From Candidatus Woesearchaeota archaeon (GTDB lineage Archaea; Nanobdellota; Nanobdellia; Nanobdellales; CAZNIQ01): DNA of 10,098 nucleotides. The notes beneath the pieces are model-generated. The model did no database searches, had not been told where the DNA came from, and saw nothing but the letters and a program-made list of their open reading frames with translations. Location: NCBI GenBank assembly GCA_964573185.1, contig CAZNIQ010000025.1, positions 1-10,098 of the forward strand, written 5' to 3'. A program made the position numbers and the translations under genes. Below, piece after piece: positions 1 to 10,098 of this stretch (position 1 is the first letter of the stretch; the number at the start of each line of letters is the position of its first letter).

Positions 1-1338
1 TATTCGGTCGTAGATTATTCCATTTTCAACATATTTTTCTTTAAATTCTTCAAATGTTTCAAAGTATTCTGAAATTCTTGTCTCTAAAATGTTTTCATAT
101 ACAGCCCTTTCAATTAATCTTTGATTTACATTTAGCATTTCCGCAATTTCTTTAACAGATTTTCTTGGATATAACCCTATTGCAACCAACTTGGCTTCTT
201 TTCTTTCTTCTCTATTTACAATTTTTCTTCTTAAATATTCTGCTACGACTAAACCTTCTCTTTGTTTTAAAGAATAAGCATATCCTATTTCTGTCAAGAA
301 TTTATAAACATCCTTTTCAGATTTCAGGTATAATCTATACATTACTTTTCCATCATATTCTTTCACTTTGTATATTTCAGATTCTATTCCAAATTCTTTC
401 AATATTTCTTTTATTTCTTCTAAGAATTTAACTAAGTTTTCTTCTAATTCTTTTACTTTTACAAATGTTAAACTTATCTGTAAAGCTGTTTTACCTTTAA
501 CTATTGGCTTTGAACCGTCTGAACCAAATAAACCTGCTAAGAAATTTGCTTTAACCCATTTTGGGCTTTCCTTTAACCATTCTGGTATTCTGAATTCTGC
601 TTTTGTTTTCTCACCAACAGGAGCTCCCAATTTAATTAATAATAATGCAAAAGCTTTTGAGGTAATCTTAATAGAATATTCTTTTCCTTCAGTTTCATAT
701 TCATAACCCCAAGGAGATTTTATCTTTATTTTTCTTTTCCTTTCATAAATTCTTGAAGCTTTAATACTTAATTTTTCTAGATCTCTTCTTAATTCTTCCA
801 ATCCTTCCTTTTCACCGTAGAACCAAACAATATATCTTTCTCTCTTCTTCCCTCTCTCTTCTGTTATTATTCTAGTTATGCATCCATCTCCAATTAGATA
901 ACCTAAAATTCTAGCAAGGATTCCAATTCTTAAATCATTTGATTTCAAAGGTAACAATTTTCTTTCTTTAAGATACTTAATTATTTGTGGGTCATATCTT
1001 TCGAAATCTTTTTCAGTTAAAATTACTTTTTCTTTTGGTTTTTCAAACTCAACACCTTCAAATGGGTAAACAGCTATATACTCTCCTACTTTTAGTTCTT
1101 TAGCTAATTTCCATCCTTCTTTTGTTAAAACTGGATGATCAAAAGATAATTCTAGTTCCCTTCCAGTTTCTGTTTTTATCTTTATTATGAACTCGTCAGA
1201 GGGTCTTTCAGATATAAATAAAATTCTGCTTCTCTTTTCCTTTGTTCTTAACTCTACTTCATTTAATAAAGGTATTAAATCTTTTATTTTAATTCTAAAA
1301 CCTAAATCCGTTAGTACTTCGGTATTTCCAGGCAAGCA
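1..1338 (-). mobile_element. Intein with LAGLIDADG homing-endonuclease domain, inserted in RtcB directly after GFDIN; C-terminal splice junction is outside the window
   Basis: After extein ...GGIGFDIN the sequence continues [14 protein letters not shown] (Cys1 codon 1338..1336, intein block A-like). This is followed by [12 protein letters not shown] (block B-like, TxxH type). Two LAGLIDADG motifs follow: [15 protein letters not shown] (about 883..903) and [14 protein letters not shown] (about 511..543). ENGIIYDRI at the window edge resembles block F. The RtcB motif would normally continue GFDINCGVR. Confidence 0.85.
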
Positions 1339-1626
1339 ATTAATATCAAAGCCTATTCCGCCAGGAGTAATTATTCCTTCATTTAAATCAAAAGCAGCAA
1401 CACCTCCAATTGGAAAACCATAACCTTGGTGTCCATCGGGCATTACGATCATCCATTTTTGAATACCCGGTAATGTAGCAACATTTCTTGCTTGTTCTAA
1501 CGTTTTATCTTCTTGCATTTTCTTAAGTAGTATTTCTGAAGCATATATTCTTGCAGGAACTCTCATTGGGGGCTCTTTTGGTATTTCCCAAATAAGATCA
1601 GAAACTTTTCTCAGCTTAATGTACAT
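1..1626 (-). CDS. rtcB: RNA-splicing ligase RtcB, N-terminal part interrupted by an intein; the rest of the gene lies beyond the left window edge
   Basis: Manual minus-strand translation from ATG 1626..1624 stays open to base 1 (542 codons). It is absent from the ORF track because it runs off the edge. The N-terminus [31 protein letters not shown]...[31 protein letters not shown]...PGGIGFDIN carries the conserved RtcB motifs (PDxHxGYGxPIGG, GGIGFDIN followed by Cys). Confidence 0.9.
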
Positions 1627-1656
1627 AAAAATAACTATGTTATAAACTTTTTAAAG
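1627..1656. promoter_or_regulatory. 30-bp divergent promoter spacer between rtcB (minus) and the methyltransferase fusion gene (plus)
   Basis: The spacer is entirely A/T-rich. The plus-strand ATAAAAATA (about 1625..1633) is centred about 27 nt upstream of ATG 1657. The minus-strand CTTTAAAAAG (complement of about 1648..1657) is centred about 26 nt upstream of ATG 1626. This spacing fits archaeal TATA boxes and leaderless transcripts. No BRE or TSS can be verified. Confidence 0.35.
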
Positions 1657-1704
1657 ATGAGGAGGGGCACACTCTCTGAGAATGATGAGAGGAGCGAGAG
1701 CCGA
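1657..1704 (+). ncRNA. Candidate box C/D sRNA-like element with degenerate terminal boxes, coincident with codons 1-16 of the downstream CDS
   Basis: Layout is ATGAGGA (C, 1 mismatch to RUGAUGA), 12 nt GGGGCACACTCT, CTGA (D', 1676..1679), GAA, TGATGA (C', 1683..1688), 12 nt GAGGAGCGAGAG, CCGA (D variant, 1701..1704). The 12/3/12 spacing is canonical and the internal boxes are perfect, but both terminal boxes are imperfect. The segment is locally GC-rich relative to its surroundings. Confidence 0.4.
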
Positions 1705-2847
1705 ATACTTCTTGTTCGTAAAATAAAAGATAAGGAAGCGTACCCACCAAAAGAAGACTCCTTCTTATTACAAAAATATGTTAAAATTTTTGCTAAAGGA
1801 ATAGTTTTGGATATTGGCACTGGTACTGGAATTCAAGCAATAACAGCAGCTTTAAAATCTAACGTCAAAAGAGTAATAGCCTCTGATATTGATAAAGATG
1901 CATTGATTATTGCAAAGTTTAATTCTGAGCTAAATGGAGTTTATGAAAAGATAATTTTTGTCCAATCCAACTTATTCGAAAGAATTCCAAAAATAAAATA
2001 TGATACTATTATTTTTAATCCCCCATATTTACCTGAGGAAGGAGTAGAGGATTATAAAACAAAACTTTGGACGGTTGGAGGTGAGGAAGGAAATGAACTT
2101 ATCTTAAGGTTTTTAGAAGAAGCTTGGAAATATTTATATAAAAATGGCATTATTCTTTTAGTTTTTTCATCTTTAAGCAATCCTAAAAAGATATTATCTT
2201 TTGCAGAAGAATTAGGATATTCATATAAGCTTTTAGAATCTAAAAGATTTTTCTTTGAAGAAATCTATGTTTACTTATTCAGCAGGTCTCATGATCATCA
2301 TCTTTCAGCACAGGAAACGTTCATCACCGAAGGTTGGCATTCTCATATTTATTTAACAGATAGAAATACTATTATAAAAAAGTTTAAAGAAAATTTAAGG
2401 TTAAACTATGAAAAGGAAAAATATTTTTTATTAAAGCTAAAGGATTTCGATTTTACTCCAAAGATTATAGATTTTGATGATAGCGAAATGAAAATAGAAA
2501 TGGAATATATTAAAGGAAAAACATTGAAGGAAGTTATTAAAAAAGGAAAGTTAACTGTCGATTTAATTAAGGATATTTTGGAGATTTGTTACACGCTAGA
2601 TAAATTGAGAATAGATAAAGGGGAGATGAATAGACCATGGGAACATATAATAATTTCAGATAGAATTGTCTTTATTGATTGGGAGAGAGCTAAAGAAACT
2701 AGAAAGCCTTCTAATGTAACAAATTTTCTACAGTTCTTACATAAAATTAAATTTATTGATATAACAAAAATAAAAGATATTTTAAGGAAATATAAGAAAA
2801 CCTATGATAGAAAGTATATTTTAGAGATAATCAGAAATCTAGGATAA
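1657..2847 (+). CDS. Fusion protein: N-terminal HemK/Mtq2-type (archaeal HemK-related) SAM-dependent methyltransferase plus C-terminal divergent Bud32/RIO-like kinase-fold domain
   Basis: The methyltransferase part (aa ~27-208) has YPPKEDSFLL, VLDIGTGTGIQAI (SAM motif I) and IIFNPPYLP (NPPY, codons 121-124 at 2017..2028), and ends ...FFFEEIYVYLFS like stand-alone archaeal HemK-related proteins. The C-terminal part (aa ~225-396) has GWHSHIYL...TIIKKF, KIEMEYIKGKTLKEVI, RIDKGEMNRPWEHIII and VFIDWE. These align by eye to the Bud32 elements (G-loop, VIIK, MEYIxG, HxDLxxxN, DFG) but with substituted catalytic residues. Confidence 0.75.
   Translation: MRRGTLSENDERSESRILLVRKIKDKEAYPPKEDSFLLQKYVKIFAKGIVLDIGTGTGIQAITAALKSNVKRVIASDIDKDALIIAKFNSELNGVYEKIIFVQSNLFERIPKIKYDTIIFNPPYLPEEGVEDYKTKLWTVGGEEGNELILRFLEEAWKYLYKNGIILLVFSSLSNPKKILSFAEELGYSYKLLESKRFFFEEIYVYLFSRSHDHHLSAQETFITEGWHSHIYLTDRNTIIKKFKENLRLNYEKEKYFLLKLKDFDFTPKIIDFDDSEMKIEMEYIKGKTLKEVIKKGKLTVDLIKDILEICYTLDKLRIDKGEMNRPWEHIIISDRIVFIDWERAKETRKPSNVTNFLQFLHKIKFIDITKIKDILRKYKKTYDRKYILEIIRNLG
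2279..2327 (-). ncRNA. Box C/D sRNA, antisense to and fully inside the fusion CDS at its domain junction
   Basis: Minus-strand layout is GTGATGA (C, 2327..2321), 12 nt ACGTTTCCTGTG, CTGA (D', 2308..2305), AAGA, TGATGA (C', 2300..2295), 12 nt TCATGAGACCTG, CTGA (D, 2282..2279). All four boxes are perfect, both guides are exactly 12 nt, and the segment is a local GC island. Confidence 0.8.
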
Positions 2848-3651
2848 TTTTTCTAGTACTTCTTTTGCAATTTCTTTTATCTTTTCATCTTTTACATTTT
2901 CTAAAATATATTCCCAAACATTTTTTGAAAAATTATAATTAACCAAAATCTTAAGTAAACAATCGTAATACTTTTTATATTTTTGGTATTTTTCACTTTC
3001 TTTTTCTGGTATACTTAAAAGTTTATTTTTGATCTGCTCATATAATTTAAATCCTAGTTTTACGTCTAGTAATCCATTTGGAACAAACAAATCTATTAAT
3101 ACTTCCTCAAAATCTGGAGGTAAGTTAATTTCGTTATAGTCAAATAATATATGCAACAGTTCATGTAGAAATCCGGAAAACTTTTCTTCAACACTTCGTC
3201 TTTCGTTTTTACCAGCTGATTGGAAAATTATATATCTGTCCTTATATACAAGTGCACTTCCAAAAGATATCGTAGGAGAAAGATTATAAACTAAGTAAAC
3301 TTCTACTTCATTAGGGAATTTCTTTATCAAAAAAGTTTCCTTAATTATTTCTAAAGCTTCTTCTATTTTTTCATTATAAAAGCCTTCAAATTTATTTTTC
3401 AATTCTATCAATTCTTCCTTTATTTCCTCAAACCATTCAATTTTATAATCTACTTTTATCTTTTTATCAAGAATTCCTAATAAAAATTCCTTTCCTTTTC
3501 CCTCTAAACATTTAGAACGAAATGTATATACCAACTTTGCTAATTTAAAATCTAGGAATTGAAAAAATAAAGGATCTAGATTTATAATATGTGATCTATA
3601 TAATAATGAAGCCAATTGTGCTTCTTTAGAGACAACTACCTTTACTTTCAT
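2839..3651 (-). CDS. Hypothetical protein with HExxH motif (possible zinc metallopeptidase-like)
   Basis: Intact 270-aa ORF with coding-like K/E/I-rich composition. It contains a single HELLH motif (aa 163-167, 3151..3165) in the context FSGFLHELLHILFDYNE. I recognise no other family signature. The 3' end overlaps the convergent fusion CDS by 9 nt. Confidence 0.6.
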   Translation of the reverse strand: MKVKVVVSKEAQLASLLYRSHIINLDPLFFQFLDFKLAKLVYTFRSKCLEGKGKEFLLGILDKKIKVDYKIEWFEEIKEELIELKNKFEGFYNEKIEEALEIIKETFLIKKFPNEVEVYLVYNLSPTISFGSALVYKDRYIIFQSAGKNERRSVEEKFSGFLHELLHILFDYNEINLPPDFEEVLIDLFVPNGLLDVKLGFKLYEQIKNKLLSIPEKESEKYQKYKKYYDCLLKILVNYNFSKNVWEYILENVKDEKIKEIAKEVLEKLS

Positions 3652-3689
3652 TAAAATTTATCGAAAATTTCATTGTTTATAAATTTTGT

Positions 3690-3738
3690 TCAGGAGCTTA
3701 GAGGCTCATCAATAATCAGCTCCGCCTGAAATCATCAT
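3690..3738 (-). ncRNA. Box C/D sRNA (intergenic)
   Basis: Minus-strand layout is ATGATGA (C, 3738..3732), 12 nt TTTCAGGCGGAG, CTGA (D', 3719..3716), TTAT, TGATGA (C', 3711..3706), 12 nt GCCTCTAAGCTC, CTGA (D, 3693..3690). The flanks (AUUUUAA 5' and ACAAAAU 3') can form a short terminal stem. It is the GC-rich island of an otherwise A/T intergenic region. Confidence 0.85.
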
Positions 3739-3766
3739 TTAAAATTATTTTTATATTTAATTTTAA
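3739..3766. promoter_or_regulatory. 28-bp divergent promoter spacer between the C/D sRNA (minus) and tatD (plus)
   Basis: Plus-strand TTTAAAAT (about 3739..3746) is centred about 25 nt upstream of the tatD ATG 3767. Minus-strand TTTAAAA (complement of about 3760..3766) is centred about 25 nt upstream of the C box at 3738. The TATA-like elements are interleaved; this is inference only. Confidence 0.35.
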
Positions 3767-4522
3767 ATGCTTGTAGACACACATTCGCATATCTTTTTTT
3801 ATAAAGAGAAAGTTGATGATGTAATAAAAGAATGTAAGGAAAAAGGAGTTAAATACATTGTTGAAAATGGTTTGAATGTAGAAACTAATAGAATTGTTTT
3901 AAATGAAGCTAAAAAATATGATATTGTTCTAGCAGCCTTAGGATTTCATCCAGTGGATATCTCAAAGGAAAAAGAAGATATTATTGAAAAAGAAATAGAA
4001 TTCATTAAAGAAAATAAGGATAAGATTGTTGCCATAGGAGAAGTTGGATTGGATTATTACTGGGTAAAAGAAAAAGATCTACAAGAGAAGCAGAAAAAAT
4101 ATTTATATAAATTTATTGAACTAGCAGAAGATATTAAAAAACCTTTGATAGTCCATTCTAGAAATTCTGAAAAAGACATTATAGATATTCTAAGCACAAC
4201 AAAAGCAAAAGTTATTTTACATAGTTATATGGGGAGGATTTCTTATGCTAAAAAAGCTATTGATTTTGGATTTTATTTTTCTGTCCCATCTGTAGTTTAC
4301 AAAAGAAAAGATTTGCACAGATTAATAGAGGAAATTCCTTTAGAGTTAATTTTAACTGAAACAGACTCTCCTTTTTTAGATCCAGTAGGTTACAGAAATA
4401 ATAAGCCATGGAAAGTAATTTACGGTTTAGAAACAATTACTAAAATAAAAAAAGTTGATTTAGAAGAATTAAAGGCAATAATAATTAGAAATTTTGAGAA
4501 AGTATTTCAAGTAAAAGTTTAG
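3767..4522 (+). CDS. tatD: TatD-family metal-dependent hydrolase/DNase
   Basis: N-terminal MLVDTHSHIFF (DxHxH metal site), GEVGLDYYW, PLIVHSR, VILHSY and LTETDSPFL match the TatD/amidohydrolase signature order. Intact 251-aa ORF. Confidence 0.88.
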   Translation: MLVDTHSHIFFYKEKVDDVIKECKEKGVKYIVENGLNVETNRIVLNEAKKYDIVLAALGFHPVDISKEKEDIIEKEIEFIKENKDKIVAIGEVGLDYYWVKEKDLQEKQKKYLYKFIELAEDIKKPLIVHSRNSEKDIIDILSTTKAKVILHSYMGRISYAKKAIDFGFYFSVPSVVYKRKDLHRLIEEIPLELILTETDSPFLDPVGYRNNKPWKVIYGLETITKIKKVDLEELKAIIIRNFEKVFQVKV

Positions 4523-5042
4523 AATTTAATACCTCTGGATGAAAAGTGAAACCATAAATCTCTCTGTTTTTTACCTTAAAAATCGCTGGTTCATCTTTAA
4601 CATATCCTAAAATTTCAAAATTTTCGCTTAAAACAGGATACCTCACTATTAAAAAATAAGCTCTAAATTTGCCAAAAATAGAATTTACATCATAAACTCC
4701 AATAAATCCTTTTTTCTTTAGTTTACCCCCAAATGTTAATGCTATTATTTGAGATCCTGCACCTACTCCTATCACTTTCTTATTCGTATTTTTAATCCAT
4801 TTGAACTTATCTAAATAGTTTAAATATTCAAAATCTTTAATAGCAGTTCCAGATAAAATAATTACATCCTCTTTCGGTTCTTTCTCCAATTCTTTATAAT
4901 GAATTACTTTAACATTTCCTTTTTCTTTAAAAATGTCTACTAAAGGTCCTACAAACTCTTCTTCATGCAACTTATATTTACATAAAGAAATTATCAGGAT
5001 CGAGAGTCCCTCATCATTTTCAGAGTGGGATAACGTCATCAT
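4485..5042 (-). CDS. Class-I glutamine amidotransferase-like protein (GuaA subunit A-like fold) lacking the nucleophile cysteine
   Basis: ILIISL (beta-1-like), VIILSG, VIGVGAGSQIIALTFGG in place of the GxCxGxQ nucleophile elbow, and YGFTFHPEV (His/Glu of the triad). The only canonical in-frame starts are ATG 5042 or 5039, both inside the C box of the overlapping sRNA. Confidence 0.65.
   Translation of the reverse strand: MMTLSHSENDEGLSILIISLCKYKLHEEEFVGPLVDIFKEKGNVKVIHYKELEKEPKEDVIILSGTAIKDFEYLNYLDKFKWIKNTNKKVIGVGAGSQIIALTFGGKLKKKGFIGVYDVNSIFGKFRAYFLIVRYPVLSENFEILGYVKDEPAIFKVKNREIYGFTFHPEVLNSKLLLEILSQNF
4994..5042 (-). ncRNA. Box C/D sRNA coincident with codons 1-17 of the GATase-like CDS
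   Basis: Minus-strand layout is ATGATGA (C, 5042..5036), 12 nt CGTTATCCCACT, CTGA (D', 5023..5020), AAA, TGATGA (C', 5016..5011), 13 nt GGGACTCTCGATC, CTGA (D, 4997..4994). All four boxes are perfect and the segment is a GC-rich island. A TATA-like ATTTTTAAA (complement of 5067..5075) sits about 29 nt upstream of the C box. Confidence 0.8.
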
Positions 5043-5080
5043 TAAGATTTTAAATTTTGTTTAGAATTTAAAAATTAGAT
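5043..5080. promoter_or_regulatory. 38-bp divergent promoter spacer between the sRNA/GATase-like unit (minus) and tRNA-Gln (plus)
   Basis: Plus-strand TTTTAAAT (5048..5055) is centred about 29 nt upstream of tRNA position 1 (5081). Minus-strand ATTTTTAAA (5075..5067) is centred about 29 nt upstream of the C box/ATG at 5042. The symmetric spacing fits archaeal TATA boxes; unverified. Confidence 0.4.
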
Positions 5081-5116
5081 AGCCCCGTCGTCTAGCGGCC
5101 AAGGATGCGGGGTACC

Positions 5117-6169
5117 ATGGCGGCCGACCCCTTCCAACTTCTTTATTCCACAGTTAAACATTTGGAAAAGGAAATGAATGTTTCTTTAGATGAAGTAGCT
5201 GTCACCTATCCTCATTCAGAGATTTCGCGAGAATTTGTTAGAAGACTGCGTAGAAGATTCAAAATCAGAATAAAAGGAGAAGGAACTTTCCATACAACTG
5301 GAAGATTATTAGGATTGGCATTAACAGATGCAAATTTAAGATCTGCATTAAGTGGCTACTTTATAGTTGGAACGACCAGAATGGAAACATTTGAAATTTA
5401 TAAGAAACTTTTTAAAGACATAGTTCTTTTTACAGATTATCCTAGATATATAAATGGCAATCCATTATTACCTCTTTACATGTTGTCTAAAGACAAAACC
5501 TCTGTTAAAAAAGAAAGTATAAATAAGCTTAAAATGCTGCTAACGGACAATTTAGATATTTTTGAGGAAAAAGGGATCTTTGATTTTATAGCAAGCTGTG
5601 TAGATTTTGACGGAGAAGTACATGGCAGAACATTTGTTATTTATAGAAAAGAAAATAGCAGGAAGGGGCAAATATTATCTAAACTTTTCTTATTTTTTGA
5701 AGAAATTGGCATATTAAAAATCACAAATTATGGTTTAAATACATGGAAAGATAGAATATCATTCAAAGTTTCTGCAAAGTATATACGAAATATAATGTTA
5801 TTGCATCCTAATAAAAGGATTGCTTCAGATATTTCAATTCCAAGTATAGTTTTTACAAAAGAAGAACTAGAATGCCTTAGGAAATACCTAAAAGAGGTTA
5901 AATTAATTAAACAAAAGTATGCATACAAATATCTTCTATTATTTAATGATATAAAGGCGGCACAACTGTTAAAAGATAAAGGATTTAAAATAAGTATCTT
6001 TGGTAAAAATATTGCAAAATATTTTGGAGATAAAGCATTACTTCTAGCAATTTTAGATATTATCGGATTTAATATAAAGAACCTGATTCCTCCGTATAAA
6101 TATCCGAGTAGAATATACGAACTTTTGGATAAAGTTGAATATATAAAAAGCCATATAAAGGTTAAATGA
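5117..6169 (+). CDS. Intron-encoded two-motif LAGLIDADG homing endonuclease with a C-terminal extension of about 140 aa
   Basis: Motif 1 is RLLGLALTDANL (LLGLALTDA at 5306..5332). Motif 2 is FDFIASCVDFDGEV (IASCVDFDG at 5588..5614). They lie about 95 aa apart, as in single-chain LAGLIDADG enzymes. The start is set at ATG 5117, the first ATG inside the intron. The track start 5105 lies in the tRNA exon, and ATG 5174 is an alternative. Stop TGA is at 6167..6169, 10 nt before the clamp. Confidence 0.8.
   Translation: MAADPFQLLYSTVKHLEKEMNVSLDEVAVTYPHSEISREFVRRLRRRFKIRIKGEGTFHTTGRLLGLALTDANLRSALSGYFIVGTTRMETFEIYKKLFKDIVLFTDYPRYINGNPLLPLYMLSKDKTSVKKESINKLKMLLTDNLDIFEEKGIFDFIASCVDFDGEVHGRTFVIYRKENSRKGQILSKLFLFFEEIGILKITNYGLNTWKDRISFKVSAKYIRNIMLLHPNKRIASDISIPSIVFTKEELECLRKYLKEVKLIKQKYAYKYLLLFNDIKAAQLLKDKGFKISIFGKNIAKYFGDKALLLAILDIIGFNIKNLIPPYKYPSRIYELLDKVEYIKSHIKVK
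5119..5133 (+). repeat. 5' arm of a 15-bp perfect inverted repeat (GC clamp) closing the intron
   Basis: GGCGGCCGACCCCTT is the exact reverse complement of 6179..6193. Confidence 0.95.
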
Positions 6170-6178
6170 AAAAATGTA

Positions 6179-6193
6179 AAGGGGTCGGCCGCC
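6179..6193 (+). repeat. 3' arm of a 15-bp perfect inverted repeat (GC clamp) closing the intron
   Basis: AAGGGGTCGGCCGCC is the exact reverse complement of 5119..5133. Confidence 0.95.
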
Positions 6194-6239
6194 GGGCCCG
6201 AGTTTGGTCCCCGTGACCGGGGTTCGAATCCCCGCGGGG

Positions 6240-8495
6240 CTAGTAAACTTTAACTTCTATTTCAGTTCCCTTTCTATATAAATAATAGCTTTTTGCAGCA
6301 GCTTCTTTAAAAATTTCATCATGTGTACAAATAATTAATTGGAAATTCTCCAAAGATTTTAAAGTTTCTGCAAGTTTCCTTCTTATTCTTTCATCTAAAG
6401 ATTCTGTAGGCTCATCTAATAATAGAAAGCCTATATTTTTTGATAACAGATTTATTAATGCAAATCTAAAAGCCAAGTCTAAAGCTACTATTTGGCCTCC
6501 AGATAGGGACGCTTCTTCCAAAGGTAAAACAACATCCCTCTCACCAATTTTCTTCTTTACATATATTTTATAAACAAAATCTTTCCTTCCCCTTTCAACT
6601 CTTATCTCAACACTTTCAATATCATCATATATGTAAATCCTCTTAAACCAATAATTTAGATAAATAGTTAATCTTTTGGCAACTTCATCTCTTACCCTTA
6701 TCTTTATTTTTTGGAATACAGTAGCAAGCTTGCTTATTATATTTACAAATTTTTCTAACTCTTCGATGTACTTCTTAAGTTTTTCAACATATTCTTTCTT
6801 CTCTTTTAAGTATTTCAAGAATTTTATATCTATTTTAGGTAAGCTTTCCAGTTCATCTTCAACTTCCTTTATTTTCCTTTCTATTTCTTCTAATTCTATA
6901 CCATACCTCTTAACGATTTCTTTTAATTCCTCTAACTCTTTTATTTTTTCTTTCATCTTAAAGATCCTATATCTTTGAATTTCCAAATCTCTTAACTCTT
7001 TTTCTAATCTACTTTTAGTTTCTTCCAATTCTTTTACACTTCTCTCAATCTCTTTCTTCTTCAAATAACTTAAAGCAGAATATACTTTTTCATAGATCAA
7101 AATTTCGTTTAATTCTTTCTCAAAGTTTTCCTTTATTCTTTCTAATTCTTCTATTTTATCAGTACCAAATTCCTCTAAGGCAAAGTTTAAATAATATTTT
7201 CTTTTATTATAAATCTCTCTCTTCTCTTCTAACTCTTTTTCTAAATTTAAGATTTCTCTTTTTATTTGTAAATCTCTTTTTTTCAACTCTTCTAACTCTT
7301 TTACCTTTTCTTCTAATAATTTTTTTGGATTTTCAATTCTTGAACCACACACAGGACATTTCGGTTCCTTTACTTTTTCTAGTATCTCTATGAGTTTTTG
7401 AATATCCTTTATCTTAACATTTAATTCCCTCAACTCTTCTTTTTTCTTTTCTAATTTTTCTTCTAATTCTTTTATATCCTCTTCTTTTATATTCGGTAGC
7501 TCTTTCAAATTCTTTATAATTCTCTCTATTTGTTTTATTTTATTTAAAATTAAGGACTTTCTTGAGGTATCTACCTTTATTTTCTTTACCGTTTCCTCCA
7601 GCTCTTCTATTTTCTTATCTAAGAACTCTTTAAAATCATCCGTTAAAATATCATACTTTGCACTTTCTTCTTTCAATTCTAATATTATATTTTCAACTTC
7701 TCTTAACTCTTCTTTAATTTTACTATATTTTTCATTAATTTCTTTTTCTTTTTTCAACAACTCCTCATCGATTTCCCTCTTCAAATATTTATATCTTATA
7801 TTTATCCTTTCTAACTCTTTTAATTGTCTCTCCAATTCTTCCCTTCTTTTAGCTAATTCTTCTAGTTTTCCAATATCCTCTCCAAAGTACTTTTGTATAG
7901 AAGCGCTTTCTCTTGTATATTCGGATTTTGCTCTTAGTAATTCTTTTCTTAAATCCTCTAGAGCTTTGCTTAAGGTATCTGCAATCTCTGTAAATTTTTT
8001 CAAATCTAATAATTCTTCTAATTCTTCTGAAAAAGTTTTCTTTCCAGAGCCTAAAACCAAAGATCCTAAAGTTCTTTGTCTAATGAATATAACATTTACA
8101 GCCTTATCTAAATCTTTTACTTTGAGTAAATTTTCTAATACATATCTAGTTATAGTTTCATTTCCAGATGCAACCACTTTTCCATTTTTTCTTATAATAC
8201 CATTTCCAGAAGGAACTTCTCTTATAATTTCATATATATTTTCATTATCCTGTAAAACAACTGTAACTTTTCCTAGAGAACTTCCTCTTCTGACTAAATT
8301 TTCTTTTCTTCCACCTTTTTCGTAAGAAGTTAAAGCTTGAGAGCCAAATAAAGCATAAATTATACCTAATAATATAGATGTTTTACCGGTTCCGTTTTCG
8401 CCTAAAATCAAAGTAACTTTATCATCAAAATCTATTGCTAAGTTTTTATGAATTCTAAAATTTTCTAATACTACTTTTTTTAATTTAACTACCAT
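6240..8495 (-). CDS. rad50: DNA double-strand break repair ATPase Rad50
   Basis: Walker A GENGTGKTS is near the N-terminus. A long E/K-rich coiled coil carries a central zinc hook, KEPKCPVCGS (CPVC at 7358..7347, aa 380-383). The ABC signature SLSGGQ, Walker B LLLDEPT and H-loop ICTHD are at the C-terminus. The start overlaps the mre11 stop by 7 nt. Confidence 0.93.
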   Translation of the reverse strand: MVVKLKKVVLENFRIHKNLAIDFDDKVTLILGENGTGKTSILLGIIYALFGSQALTSYEKGGRKENLVRRGSSLGKVTVVLQDNENIYEIIREVPSGNGIIRKNGKVVASGNETITRYVLENLLKVKDLDKAVNVIFIRQRTLGSLVLGSGKKTFSEELEELLDLKKFTEIADTLSKALEDLRKELLRAKSEYTRESASIQKYFGEDIGKLEELAKRREELERQLKELERINIRYKYLKREIDEELLKKEKEINEKYSKIKEELREVENIILELKEESAKYDILTDDFKEFLDKKIEELEETVKKIKVDTSRKSLILNKIKQIERIIKNLKELPNIKEEDIKELEEKLEKKKEELRELNVKIKDIQKLIEILEKVKEPKCPVCGSRIENPKKLLEEKVKELEELKKRDLQIKREILNLEKELEEKREIYNKRKYYLNFALEEFGTDKIEELERIKENFEKELNEILIYEKVYSALSYLKKKEIERSVKELEETKSRLEKELRDLEIQRYRIFKMKEKIKELEELKEIVKRYGIELEEIERKIKEVEDELESLPKIDIKFLKYLKEKKEYVEKLKKYIEELEKFVNIISKLATVFQKIKIRVRDEVAKRLTIYLNYWFKRIYIYDDIESVEIRVERGRKDFVYKIYVKKKIGERDVVLPLEEASLSGGQIVALDLAFRFALINLLSKNIGFLLLDEPTESLDERIRRKLAETLKSLENFQLIICTHDEIFKEAAAKSYYLYRKGTEIEVKVY

Positions 8496-9682
8496 AGATC
8501 TAATAATGTTCTTTGCTTCAATGTTGCTGTTCCAAAGTATGGTTTCTTAACTTTATTATTTAACCATTCTCTTAGCCTCTCTGCTCCAAAGGTATCATAT
8601 ATCTCTAATATTTTATCTACAAGATCTTCTACCTCCTTTAAATTTTCTCTAAAATATTTTTTCAGTTCTTCTTTTATTAAACTATCTATTAGTGAATCGA
8701 AAGTTTCTATTGTACCAATATTATTAAACTTTATCTCTTTCTCCTTTTTCCTTGAAACATATTCTTCATATAGTATTAAAAAGCCTGCTGTCTTTAAATT
8801 AGCAATAGCATTTCTCAACAAATCTTTTATGTTATCATCTGTTAGAACCTTTAATTTTATCAAAACATCTTTCCCGTTCTCAATTATTTTTTCTATTATC
8901 CTATCAACTTCCTCTTTTTCAAAAACAACATTTTCATAAACTTTAATTTTCCTTACTTTTATTTTAACAAAATTCAGTTTTCCATTATTATAAAAGTAAA
9001 AACCTTTTTCAGCATTTTCTTCTCTTTTAGATATTTCTGTCCTTTCTGTAGAGCCCGGTAAAACATACAAGCTCCCCTCTTTTTCCAAAGGTTCTTGCTT
9101 AATATGAAAATGGCCAAAAGCGTAATAATCAAAACCTTGTGGTAAATCTGTAATAGAAATTACTCTTGGATCTGAATAATCGAAAAGCTCTTTAGGAACA
9201 GTATGTGAAATAAAAATAGAAAATTTATCGTTGTCCGGTGTTATTTTTTTGAATATGGCTTTATAATAAATTCTTAATTTTTCATCTCCAAGATCTTTCG
9301 GTTCAGAAACCCCATTAATGTAAACATTATCTAAAATAAAAGGTTCCTTGTTAACTTCAAAAATCAAACCTGAATGTTTTAGAATTTCAAAAGCTTTAAG
9401 TCTAGATCTTTTTATATCATGATTTCCTTTAATTGAAATAAAATAAATGTTGTTTGCTTTTAATTTTGCCAATTCCTTTACAACTTCTAGCAATAAATCT
9501 CCGGAAAGTTTGAACATCTCATCAAATAAATCTCCTGAATGAATTATAAAATCAACTTTTTTTTCTATTGCAAAATCTATTACTTGTTTAAAAGCGTTAA
9601 GAAAATCCTTTTCACGTATTTCATCGTACTCTATTGGAGTTTTACATCCTAAATGTGTATCAGAAACATGTATGAATTTCAT
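8489..9682 (-). CDS. mre11: DNA double-strand break repair nuclease Mre11
   Basis: Calcineurin-like phosphoesterase motifs occur in order: FIHVSDTHLG (I), HSGDLFD (II), KGNHD (III), FISHT (IV), AFGHFH (V). It lies directly upstream of rad50 and is translationally coupled to it. Confidence 0.92.
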   Translation of the reverse strand: MKFIHVSDTHLGCKTPIEYDEIREKDFLNAFKQVIDFAIEKKVDFIIHSGDLFDEMFKLSGDLLLEVVKELAKLKANNIYFISIKGNHDIKRSRLKAFEILKHSGLIFEVNKEPFILDNVYINGVSEPKDLGDEKLRIYYKAIFKKITPDNDKFSIFISHTVPKELFDYSDPRVISITDLPQGFDYYAFGHFHIKQEPLEKEGSLYVLPGSTERTEISKREENAEKGFYFYNNGKLNFVKIKVRKIKVYENVVFEKEEVDRIIEKIIENGKDVLIKLKVLTDDNIKDLLRNAIANLKTAGFLILYEEYVSRKKEKEIKFNNIGTIETFDSLIDSLIKEELKKYFRENLKEVEDLVDKILEIYDTFGAERLREWLNNKVKKPYFGTATLKQRTLLDLW

Positions 9683-10098
9683 GGATCTTCTAAGAATTCC
9701 CTTATTACTTTTAAAATGTTTTCTCTTGTTCTTGGAAAAGCTCTGAAAGTTATCTTAACATGAAAAACTTCCCCATGATCTACAAACATAAGCTTCCCAG
9801 TATTAACAAAATAATCTTTGTCAAATCTTAAATATAACCTTCCATTTTCATCAACAATTTTCTCTAGATCCCTTAAAATATCTTCTTTATTTTCTATTCT
9901 TTTTTTGATATTTTCTAACACTTTTTTAATTACTCTCCACTTATTTATTTTAACAGTGTAAGTTATTAGTTCAGATGACACTAAACCTTTTCCTTTAACC
10001 TCTTCAATATTTATTTTTTCTTTTTTCAGATCTATGCCCTCAAAAAATTTTAATAAAGCCTCCTTTATCTTTTCGGGATCATCCCAATCGTATACTAT
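9679..10098 (-). CDS. Hypothetical protein, probably 5'-truncated by the right window edge; translationally coupled to mre11
   Basis: The track ORF starts at GTG 9981, but my translation shows the same frame is open to base 10098 (IVYDWDDPEKIKEALLKFFEGIDLKKEKINIEEVKGKGL-VSSELITY...) with coding-like composition. Its stop overlaps the mre11 start in an ATGA (9679..9682). I see no recognisable family motif and no HerA or NurA signatures. Confidence 0.55.
   Translation of the reverse strand: MVYDWDDPEKIKEALLKFFEGIDLKKEKINIEEVKGKGLVSSELITYTVKINKWRVIKKVLENIKKRIENKEDILRDLEKIVDENGRLYLRFDKDYFVNTGKLMFVDHGEVFHVKITFRAFPRTRENILKVIREFLEDP

Follow-up and report, generated by a model that had tools for sequence, protein, structure and literature searches.

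The DNA analysed here (the window) is a stretch of 10,098 nucleotides (nt) from a Candidatus Woesearchaeota archaeon, a very small thermophilic symbiont placed by GTDB in the order Nanobdellales (assembly GCA_964573185.1, contig CAZNIQ010000025.1, positions 1 to 10,098 of the forward strand). Within it, a gene for tRNA-Gln(UUG) is interrupted by an intervening sequence of 1089 nt, which holds an open reading frame (ORF) of 350 codons. Sequence comparisons indicate that the product of this ORF is probably a LAGLIDADG homing endonuclease of the single-chain, two-domain type, though a highly divergent one, whose gene is carried by an archaeal bulge-helix-bulge (BHB) intron of the tRNA gene. All features of this locus given below with coordinates lie on the forward strand.

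The tRNA gene was called, together with its 1089-nt intron, by ARAGORN in intron mode, while the same program run without introns returned no tRNA at the locus. The 5' exon (5081..5113, tRNA positions 1-32) measures 33 nt, the size of the 5' half of the split tRNA-Gln of Nanoarchaeum equitans (PMC3218864), and joining it to the 40-nt 3' exon (6203..6242) gives a 73-nt cloverleaf. The intron (5114..6202) interrupts the tRNA at position 32/33, as seen from the ARAGORN call, the joined-exon cloverleaf, the predicted fold and the empty alleles of other genomes. At the 5' splice site (5108..5114), the helix strand CGGG (5108-5111) is followed by the 3-nt bulge G-T|A (5112-5114), cut after 5113; at the 3' splice site (6197..6203), the strand CCCG (6197-6200) is followed by the bulge A-G|T (6201-6203), cut after 6202. 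A 4-bp CGGG/CCCG helix with two 3-nt bulges, each cleaved after its second base, is thereby formed. On the intron side of this motif, two C:G pairs and a one-base bulge lead into a perfect GC helix of 13-14 bp, the GC clamp, whose 5' strand (5119..5131) is the exact reverse complement of its 3' strand (6181..6193) over 13 bp and doubles as codons 1-5 of the long ORF. Since the exon-side helix is weak or nearly absent, the motif is a relaxed BHB. When the entire pre-tRNA was folded with its intron shortened, it adopted the BHB form, whereas the minimum-free-energy folds of short constructs preferred the mature anticodon stem, so that the BHB and mature forms compete. The 5'-side core CGGG is common to two further loci (L002, L005) and N. 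equitans, and the element CCCGA(A/G)|TTTGG to the window, N. equitans and the Desulfurococcales copies described below.

The predicted junction was independently confirmed by uninterrupted genes of the same order. In fact, empty-site tRNA-Gln(UUG) genes were found in nine same-order genomes, the uninterrupted gene of G018 matched the predicted 43-nt junction pattern with 0 mismatches, and the spliced tRNA differs from the uninterrupted same-order genes at only 2-5 of its 73 positions. As regards processing, two adjacent ORFs with EndA domains occur on contig C6 of the genome, the layout of heteromeric endonucleases which accept relaxed motifs, and an RtcB ligase gene lies within the window itself; the host enzymes are therefore present, and they can presumably process this particular BHB. 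A group I or group II intron was considered and rejected, because no Rfam family, those two classes included, matches the intron (gathering scores; E <= 1).

The ORF (P0001, 5117-6169) ends in TGA and offers two starts. The database gene call (P0002, 331 amino acids (aa)) begins at the ATG at 5174 (M20), after the TATA-like string TTTATT. Nevertheless, residues upstream of M20 are conserved with the relatives P0003 and P0006, which favours the long form starting at the ATG at 5117, the fourth base of the intron. If this start is used, the excised intron would serve as an mRNA with hardly any leader, its first five codons coinciding with the clamp strand; in the Desulfurococcales copies the ORF starts about 64 nt into the intron, after a TTTTTAAA box. 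The probability of an open 350-codon frame arising by chance at its own base composition is about 5e-15, since a stop is expected about every 11 codons. The GC content of the ORF is 29.2%, with 21.7% at third codon positions (GC3) against 17-23% in four neighbouring genes, and its codon usage correlates with that of the neighbours at 0.90, the neighbours among themselves reaching 0.90-0.93. Two putative motifs stand out: motif 1, LLGLALTDA (aa 64-72, 5306..5332), and motif 2, IASCVDFDG (aa 158-166, 5588..5614), whose D71 and D165, respectively, are located by the alignments as putative catalytic aspartates. Ahead of the core lies an N-terminal region of about 55 aa with a basic N-terminal stretch.

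A first-pass annotation, made from the letters of the window alone, had anticipated much of this picture. Its tRNA-Gln context is borne out by the ARAGORN call, the 73-nt cloverleaf and the junction match to a same-order gene; its intact 350-codon ORF with the two motifs was found as described, their spacing being 94 aa where about 95 had been given, and motif 1 is indeed degenerate, ending in Ala in place of Gly and having no acidic residue at the first such position. The absence of a recent acquisition, which it had read from the host-like, AT-rich composition, likewise agrees with the GC3 values, the codon correlation and an identity of only 26-30% to the nearest relatives. These facts imply that the element is not a recent arrival, and we infer that it is old in its present lineage. 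The C-terminal tail, put at about 140 residues, has to be corrected to 116, counted from IASDISIPSIVF (aa 235) to the end.

The assignment of the protein to the LAGLIDADG enzymes was reached through an intermediate family. An exhaustive phmmer search of 1.8 billion representative proteins yielded a single real relative, P0003 (529 aa, E 5e-10), and a word-index search, which matched nothing apart from the protein itself, P0003 and P0006, added the latter. BLASTP aligns the window protein with P0003 over aa 56-343 (5e-15). Further copies of the tRNA-Gln type were obtained by six-frame genome searches (G418, G684, G676) and by a metagenome scan (L020), while scans of viral contigs gave no relatives. 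The members of this family outside the window come from metagenome-assembled genomes (MAGs) of Desulfurococcaceae/Desulfurococcales, and every copy of the tRNA-Gln type (G417, G418, G684, G676, the P0006 contig L005, and L020) sits at 32/33 of tRNA-Gln(UUG). In the Desulfurococcales copies the CGGG/CCCG core recurs, with bulges GC|A and AA|T, next to a clamp of 18-21 bp of unrelated sequence.

The bridge is a 354-aa ORF in genome G517, which BLASTP aligns with aa 70-234 of the window protein (2e-8). This ORF scores 25.7 bits against Pfam LAGLIDADG_3, above the cut-off of 22.5 bits, and its second motif, FLAGILDGDGYV, is canonical. Its family is present in at least 18 Thermoprotei genomes, always within 1.0-1.3-kb intervening sequences of the initiator tRNA, and the LAGLIDADG_3 threshold is passed by 7 of the 14 members aligned. 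The best match of the initiator-tRNA-family profile among PDB sequences, a weak one (E 0.029), is the I-DmoI/I-CreI chimera 1mow, in an alignment that runs from the first motif to the second and is best on the I-DmoI half. When the tRNA-Gln family was compared with the 14-member initiator-tRNA family, hhalign gave 96.9% (E 1.3e-10, 221 columns). Moreover, that profile, run by HMMER with --max against 1898 six-frame ORFs of the same genome, retrieved the window protein at aa 49-241 (E 2e-6), which delimits a putative LAGLIDADG double-domain core (5261..5839). One other ORF of the genome was matched, a stretch of a 1295-aa ORF on contig C27 (aa 751-878, E 1.7e-6), probably the endonuclease domain of an intein in a large protein; the next match had E >= 0.09. 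A canonical LAGLIDADG ORF on contig C4 was also tried as a close relative of the tRNA-Gln family and was discarded, hhalign giving 12%.

The motifs of the window protein, whose spacing of 94 aa lies within the 90-110 or so typical of the single-chain two-domain type, both align to their counterparts in the bridge family and in I-DmoI. Wherever the tRNA-Gln family was aligned with the bridge protein, D71 and D165 proved invariant, among proteins only 26-60% identical, and the equivalent residues are invariant or nearly so throughout the 14-member family; both are putative catalytic residues. The ending of motif 1 separates the two families, being T-D-A in the tRNA-Gln one and x-D-G in the initiator-tRNA one. 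Since the homology runs through an intermediate family which passes Pfam, the protein is best regarded as a divergent single-chain LAGLIDADG enzyme, on the strength of this intermediate homology and not of structure. The two-motif, pseudo-dimeric enzyme proposed in the first-pass annotation is thus recovered only by way of that family, and the direct Pfam search by which it was to be checked returns no LAGLIDADG model for the protein.

The distribution of the element is that of a mobile one. None of 20 other genomes from the order, and none of 400 sampled from the phylum Nanoarchaeota, contains the ORF; ORF-bearing introns at 32/33 of tRNA-Gln(UUG) occur in 5 out of 301 genomes belonging to the Desulfurococcales-type order. 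Presence and absence are hence patchy at one conserved site, and the same element is seen in distant lineages, as in homing introns. In one Desulfurococcales genome, G676, the ORF has decayed, with six stops as well as frameshifts, and the intron, its BHB and its clamp have been retained; no intron-less tRNA-Gln(UUG) copy was found in this MAG, which is possibly incomplete. The tRNA-Gln(UUG) gene of G676 (L014, contig C22, minus strand) is also interrupted a second time, by an intron of about 15 nt immediately 3' of the anticodon. Exon co-conversion, or transfer of the whole gene from Desulfurococcales, was rejected as an origin of the window locus: its exons are typical of nanoarchaea, having the acceptor stem AGCCCCG and differing from same-order genes at 2-5 positions and from those of Desulfurococcales at 6. 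Because the exons are nanoarchaeal and the proteins only 26-30% identical, any transfer between the phyla must be old.

Several results weigh against the reading as a LAGLIDADG homing endonuclease. Searched directly, the window protein shows no more than a sub-threshold 20-residue match in Pfam and nothing in NCBIfam, PHROGs or the PDB sequences; P0003, P0006 and the three-sequence profile of the family share this lack of any direct match to the Pfam models LAGLIDADG_1/2/3 and Hom_end or to a solved structure (the profile likewise having no match in PDB), and the initiator-tRNA profile misses the protein under the default filters of HMMER. AlphaFold2 (AF2) models from the three- and five-sequence alignments were of low confidence, with mean pLDDT (predicted local distance difference test) values of 35 and 42. 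The better one displays an alpha-beta-beta-alpha-beta-beta-alpha order over aa 151-229, at a pLDDT of only 51-63, and Foldseek found no match to it at E <= 0.001. PI-SceI, I-SceI, I-DmoI and WhiA recur near the top of the non-significant list, which is no more than compatible with a LAGLIDADG fold. From the missing direct match, the poor models and the Foldseek result it could be argued that there is no such fold, the motifs and the weak profile links being due to chance or convergence. This seems hardly credible, since BLASTP (2e-8), hhalign (96.9%) and hmmsearch (2e-6, with one other match in the genome) agree in register over both half-domains, and the bridge family passes a curated Pfam threshold.

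Further points on the same side concern activity. Motif 1 ends in Ala and not in Gly, and the tRNA-Gln(CUG) paralogue, which differs from the UUG target by 1 nt in the junction region (base 34), is uninterrupted both in the window genome (G000:C2:25780-25822, L050) and in G417 (C15:18158-18188). That a gene differing from the invaded one only at this base has been spared could mean either high specificity or a loss of activity. Furthermore, selection within the nanoarchaeal lineage is not measurable, because only one copy was found in the phylum, among the genomes sampled.

The degenerate motif 1, deprived of its Gly and first acidic position, and the uninvaded CUG paralogue would suit a former endonuclease which no longer cuts and has been kept as an RNA chaperone or maturase of the giant pre-tRNA, or as a DNA-binding regulator resembling WhiA, in which a LAGLIDADG scaffold is followed at its C-terminus by a helical domain that binds DNA. 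Such a role would be served by the basic stretch at the N-terminus and by the helical tail, which is basic as well, and the host-like composition implies long residence with selection on an intact frame. In particular, the first-pass annotation had entertained co-option for folding or splicing the pre-tRNA. This idea does not agree with what was found, namely splice sites that fall exactly in a BHB, genes for two EndA subunits and for RtcB in the genome, an intron in G676 that persists with a decayed ORF, and the conservation of both motif-end Asp, a pair which fits a nuclease and not a degenerate maturase. BHB introns are spliced by EndA and RtcB and are not expected to need a maturase; moreover, the retention of the intron in G676 after destruction of its ORF, with no intron-less copy found there, indicates that splicing is independent of the intron protein. 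A maturase is also held to be unnecessary for BHB splicing in published accounts (PMC4090602, PMC4033280). With both catalytic-position Asp invariant across such divergent proteins, and a patchy distribution over two phyla, always at one target site, which is the signature of a selfish element, a purely non-cutting role appears distinctly unlikely.

The decayed copy in G676, and the failure to find a second nanoarchaeal copy that could show selection, would also be in keeping with a neutral, dying relic, that is, an inactive endonuclease gene which has yet to gain its stops. Such a relic is difficult to reconcile with a frame so improbable by chance, with stops due every 11 codons or so, or with its full amelioration to host codon use, which implies a residence long enough for an unselected frame to have broken. 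In addition, positions are conserved along the whole length with relatives only 26-30% identical. We accordingly give this explanation little credit and retain the endonuclease as the most probable nature of the protein.

The C-terminal extension (aa 235-350, 5819..6166) is net basic, with 22 K+R against 12 D+E, is predicted to be helical, as it appears in the low-confidence AF2 model, and is of no recognised family. That its 116 residues belong to the family follows from the alignment with P0003, which spans aa 56-343; its conservation is confined to the tRNA-Gln family (P0003, P0006). Searches of PDB and Pfam gave no match for the tail, in line with the earlier remark that it has no recognisable motif, and no relation was detected to the tails of the initiator-tRNA family, which are of the same length (hhalign 0.5%). 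Two families, each tied to a different tRNA target, hence share a core and have unrelated tails. This is the pattern to be expected of an add-on for target recognition, and the tRNA-Gln-specific basic tail most likely adds contacts to the target DNA. These features fit, and do not prove, the added DNA-binding module suggested for the tail in the first-pass annotation. As a lead only, WhiA and HO-type LAGLIDADG proteins also combine the scaffold with an extra C-terminal DNA-binding module, the difference being that no likeness of the window tail to any known domain was found in sequence or structure.

The locus can be compared most directly with the split tRNA-Gln(UUG) of N. equitans, an archaeon of the same taxonomic order, which was reportedly described by Randau et al. 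in 2005. That tRNA is listed by Chan, Cozen and Lowe (2011, PMC3218864) as split at 32/33, with mature pieces of 33 nt and 40 nt, so that tRNA, break and sizes are all those of the window. The 5' half was located at its published coordinate, and the halves read ...GCGGGGT|TCCCCGTGGCTGCCC and GGGCAGCCACGGGGCCCGAA|TTTGG..., so that the CGGG/CCCG helix recurs, its bulges being GT|T and AA|T where the window has GT|A and AG|T. A GC clamp stands directly outside the BHB in both, of 14 bp in N. equitans and 13 bp in the window, although the clamp sequences are unlike. Complementary GC flanks forming a BHB at the junction, as known from split tRNA genes, are thus found in the window. The arrangement of the pieces differs, however: in N. 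equitans the two halves are encoded on opposite strands at a distance of about 63 kb, both have a promoter of their own, and a T-run closes the 5' half, whereas in the window the pieces follow each other on a single strand, are separated by 1089 nt containing an intact gene, and do not occupy the separate loci of a split tRNA. Remnants of the ORF were sought in the N. equitans genome and none was found, so this candidate was dismissed. The split initiator tRNA of N. equitans breaks at 37/38, the site of the giant introns in Thermoprotei.

Given that the combination of clamp and BHB is the one seen in the N. equitans halves, the two tRNA pieces could instead be adjacent half-genes, transcribed separately and brought together in trans by the GC clamp, an arrangement known from the adjacent split tRNA-Asp of Aeropyrum pernix. 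On this view the ORF would be a gene in its own right between the two pieces, and its product could still be a LAGLIDADG protein. TATA-like A/T boxes do precede the 3' clamp strand, at a distance of 20-40 nt (6141-6162), as well as M20 (~5140-5147), but such strings are expected by chance at 71% A+T. In addition, no oligo-T terminator follows the 5' clamp strand, where the N. equitans 5' half ends in T5-ATTTT, and the pieces are found in order on the same strand within 1.1 kb. The long ORF, beginning 4 nt into the intron and overlapping the clamp, fits a single transcript. We therefore regard two half-genes as an unlikely arrangement, though one to be taken seriously, and continue with a single gene interrupted by an intron.

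As a setting for an endonuclease gene, this intron resembles the BHB introns of archaeal rRNA, such as those encoding I-DmoI (Desulfurococcus mobilis 23S rRNA), I-PorI, I-ApeI and I-Tsp061I, where a single-chain two-motif LAGLIDADG gene likewise occupies the BHB intron of a stable RNA in a hyperthermophilic archaeon, presence is likewise patchy, and splicing relies on the EndA and ligase of the host. The differences are a tRNA as host gene, with a non-canonical 32/33 site, and an ORF filling the intron from base 4 and overlapping the clamp helix. The protein also departs from the I-DmoI type in being too divergent for a sequence match in Pfam or PDB, and in its 116-aa tail and its N-terminal region of about 55 aa; we take the rRNA-intron enzymes to be some 190-220 aa long, as against 350 aa here. 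Closer counterparts are the giant introns of the initiator tRNA in Thermoprotei (L022-L040), which are of BHB type, 1.0-1.3 kb long, closed by a GC helix, and encode proteins of about 300-370 aa with a core homologous to that of P0001. These differ in their target, the initiator tRNA at 37/38, in their canonical motif 2, in that about half of the members pass Pfam, and in tails with no detectable relation to that of P0001 (hhalign 0.5%). Such insertions at about 37/38 were observed in the initiator tRNA genes of at least 15 Thermoprotei genomes, the copies L036, L037 and L039 being decayed. In many of these giant-intron initiator tRNAs, a GGCGGGG...CCCCGCC pairing of leader and trailer surrounds the whole tRNA.

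In the openly readable reviews and papers, endonuclease genes are described only for the BHB introns of archaeal rRNA, tRNA introns being treated as devoid of ORFs (PMC4090602, PMC4033280, PMC4496867, PMC6125680, PMC10714607). Archaeal tRNA introns appear there as short and ORF-less, with a mode of spread left unexplained (PMC4090602 and PMC4033280, both from 2014, and the 2023 meeting report PMC10714607). No published report of an endonuclease-bearing tRNA intron was found in the openly readable literature, subscription literature lying outside the scope of the search. The present case contributes the cryptic endonuclease family together with the exact match to the N. equitans split site.

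Other interrupted genes were observed in the window and its genome. The RtcB gene (window 1-1626, minus strand), encoding the enzyme which would seal the exons of this tRNA-Gln intron, contains an intein of its own, in which Pfam recognises a LAGLIDADG_3 endonuclease domain (E 3e-17), and runs off the window. The genome has two further interrupted tRNAs closed by clamps. In the first (L018, G000:C4:34700-35678), a tRNA on the minus strand, with the Asn-like loop CTGTTA and called as Lys by ARAGORN, is interrupted by about 590 nt closed by a 20-bp GC helix; an ORF antisense to it (305-922, plus strand) encodes an I-DmoI-like protein of 205 aa with two canonical LAGLIDADG motifs (LAGLIDADG_3 E 2e-9). 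In the second (L019, G000:C26:7900-8522), a tRNA with a CAU anticodon loop, CTCATAA, carries an interruption of about 400 nt with no long ORF, closed by a 13-bp GC helix, and an additional small intron is present. Within the window, a 270-aa ORF (2839-3651, minus strand) with no Pfam match at E <= 0.001 stands between a methyltransferase-fusion gene and TatD. The remaining neighbours are ordinary (GATase, Rad50, Mre11 and an RNA_binding-domain protein).

Taken as a homing intron, the element would work in the following way. The EndA and RtcB of the host would excise the intron from the pre-tRNA-Gln, and with the intron removed by host enzymes the insertion should cost the tRNA nothing. The protein would be made from the excised intron, effectively leaderless with its AUG at intron base 4, or alternatively from M20 under a promoter inside the intron. 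It would then cut intron-less tRNA-Gln(UUG) genes around the 32/33 junction by means of D71 and D165, the basic 116-aa tail adding contacts to the target DNA, and repair of the cut would copy the intron into the empty gene.

A further step may be proposed more tentatively, as a possibility we do not favour over its opposite: the locus may be a surviving intermediate on the way to split tRNA genes, and part of an element family shared by Nanoarchaeota and Desulfurococcales. On this account, a BHB intron at 32/33 would have grown to kilobase length through a homing-endonuclease gene, which also favoured a long GC clamp, and a rearrangement inside such an intron in the N. equitans lineage would have parted the ends, which still pair via the clamp. 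The shared 32/33 and 37/38 break sites and the other clamp-closed interrupted tRNAs of the genome support, and do not prove, this path from an endonuclease-inflated intron to a split gene. As for the family, the fact that all the relatives are in Desulfurococcales, the lineage of the known Nanoarchaeota hosts, hints at an exchange of elements between symbiont and host lineages. If this is true, tRNA introns can home across phyla by way of a nearly identical tRNA target (2 of about 27 positions differ).

In general terms, a protein-coding and apparently mobile BHB intron in a tRNA gene offers a concrete mechanism, at the DNA level, for the gain of tRNA introns at non-canonical sites. As standard domain searches miss the endonuclease family altogether, elements of this sort go under-annotated and the tRNAs concerned are reported as missing. 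Moreover, since both the site and the BHB core coincide with those of the N. equitans split tRNA-Gln, the debate on whether split tRNA genes are early or late gains a testable scenario, leading from an intron to a giant endonuclease-bearing intron and from this to a split gene.

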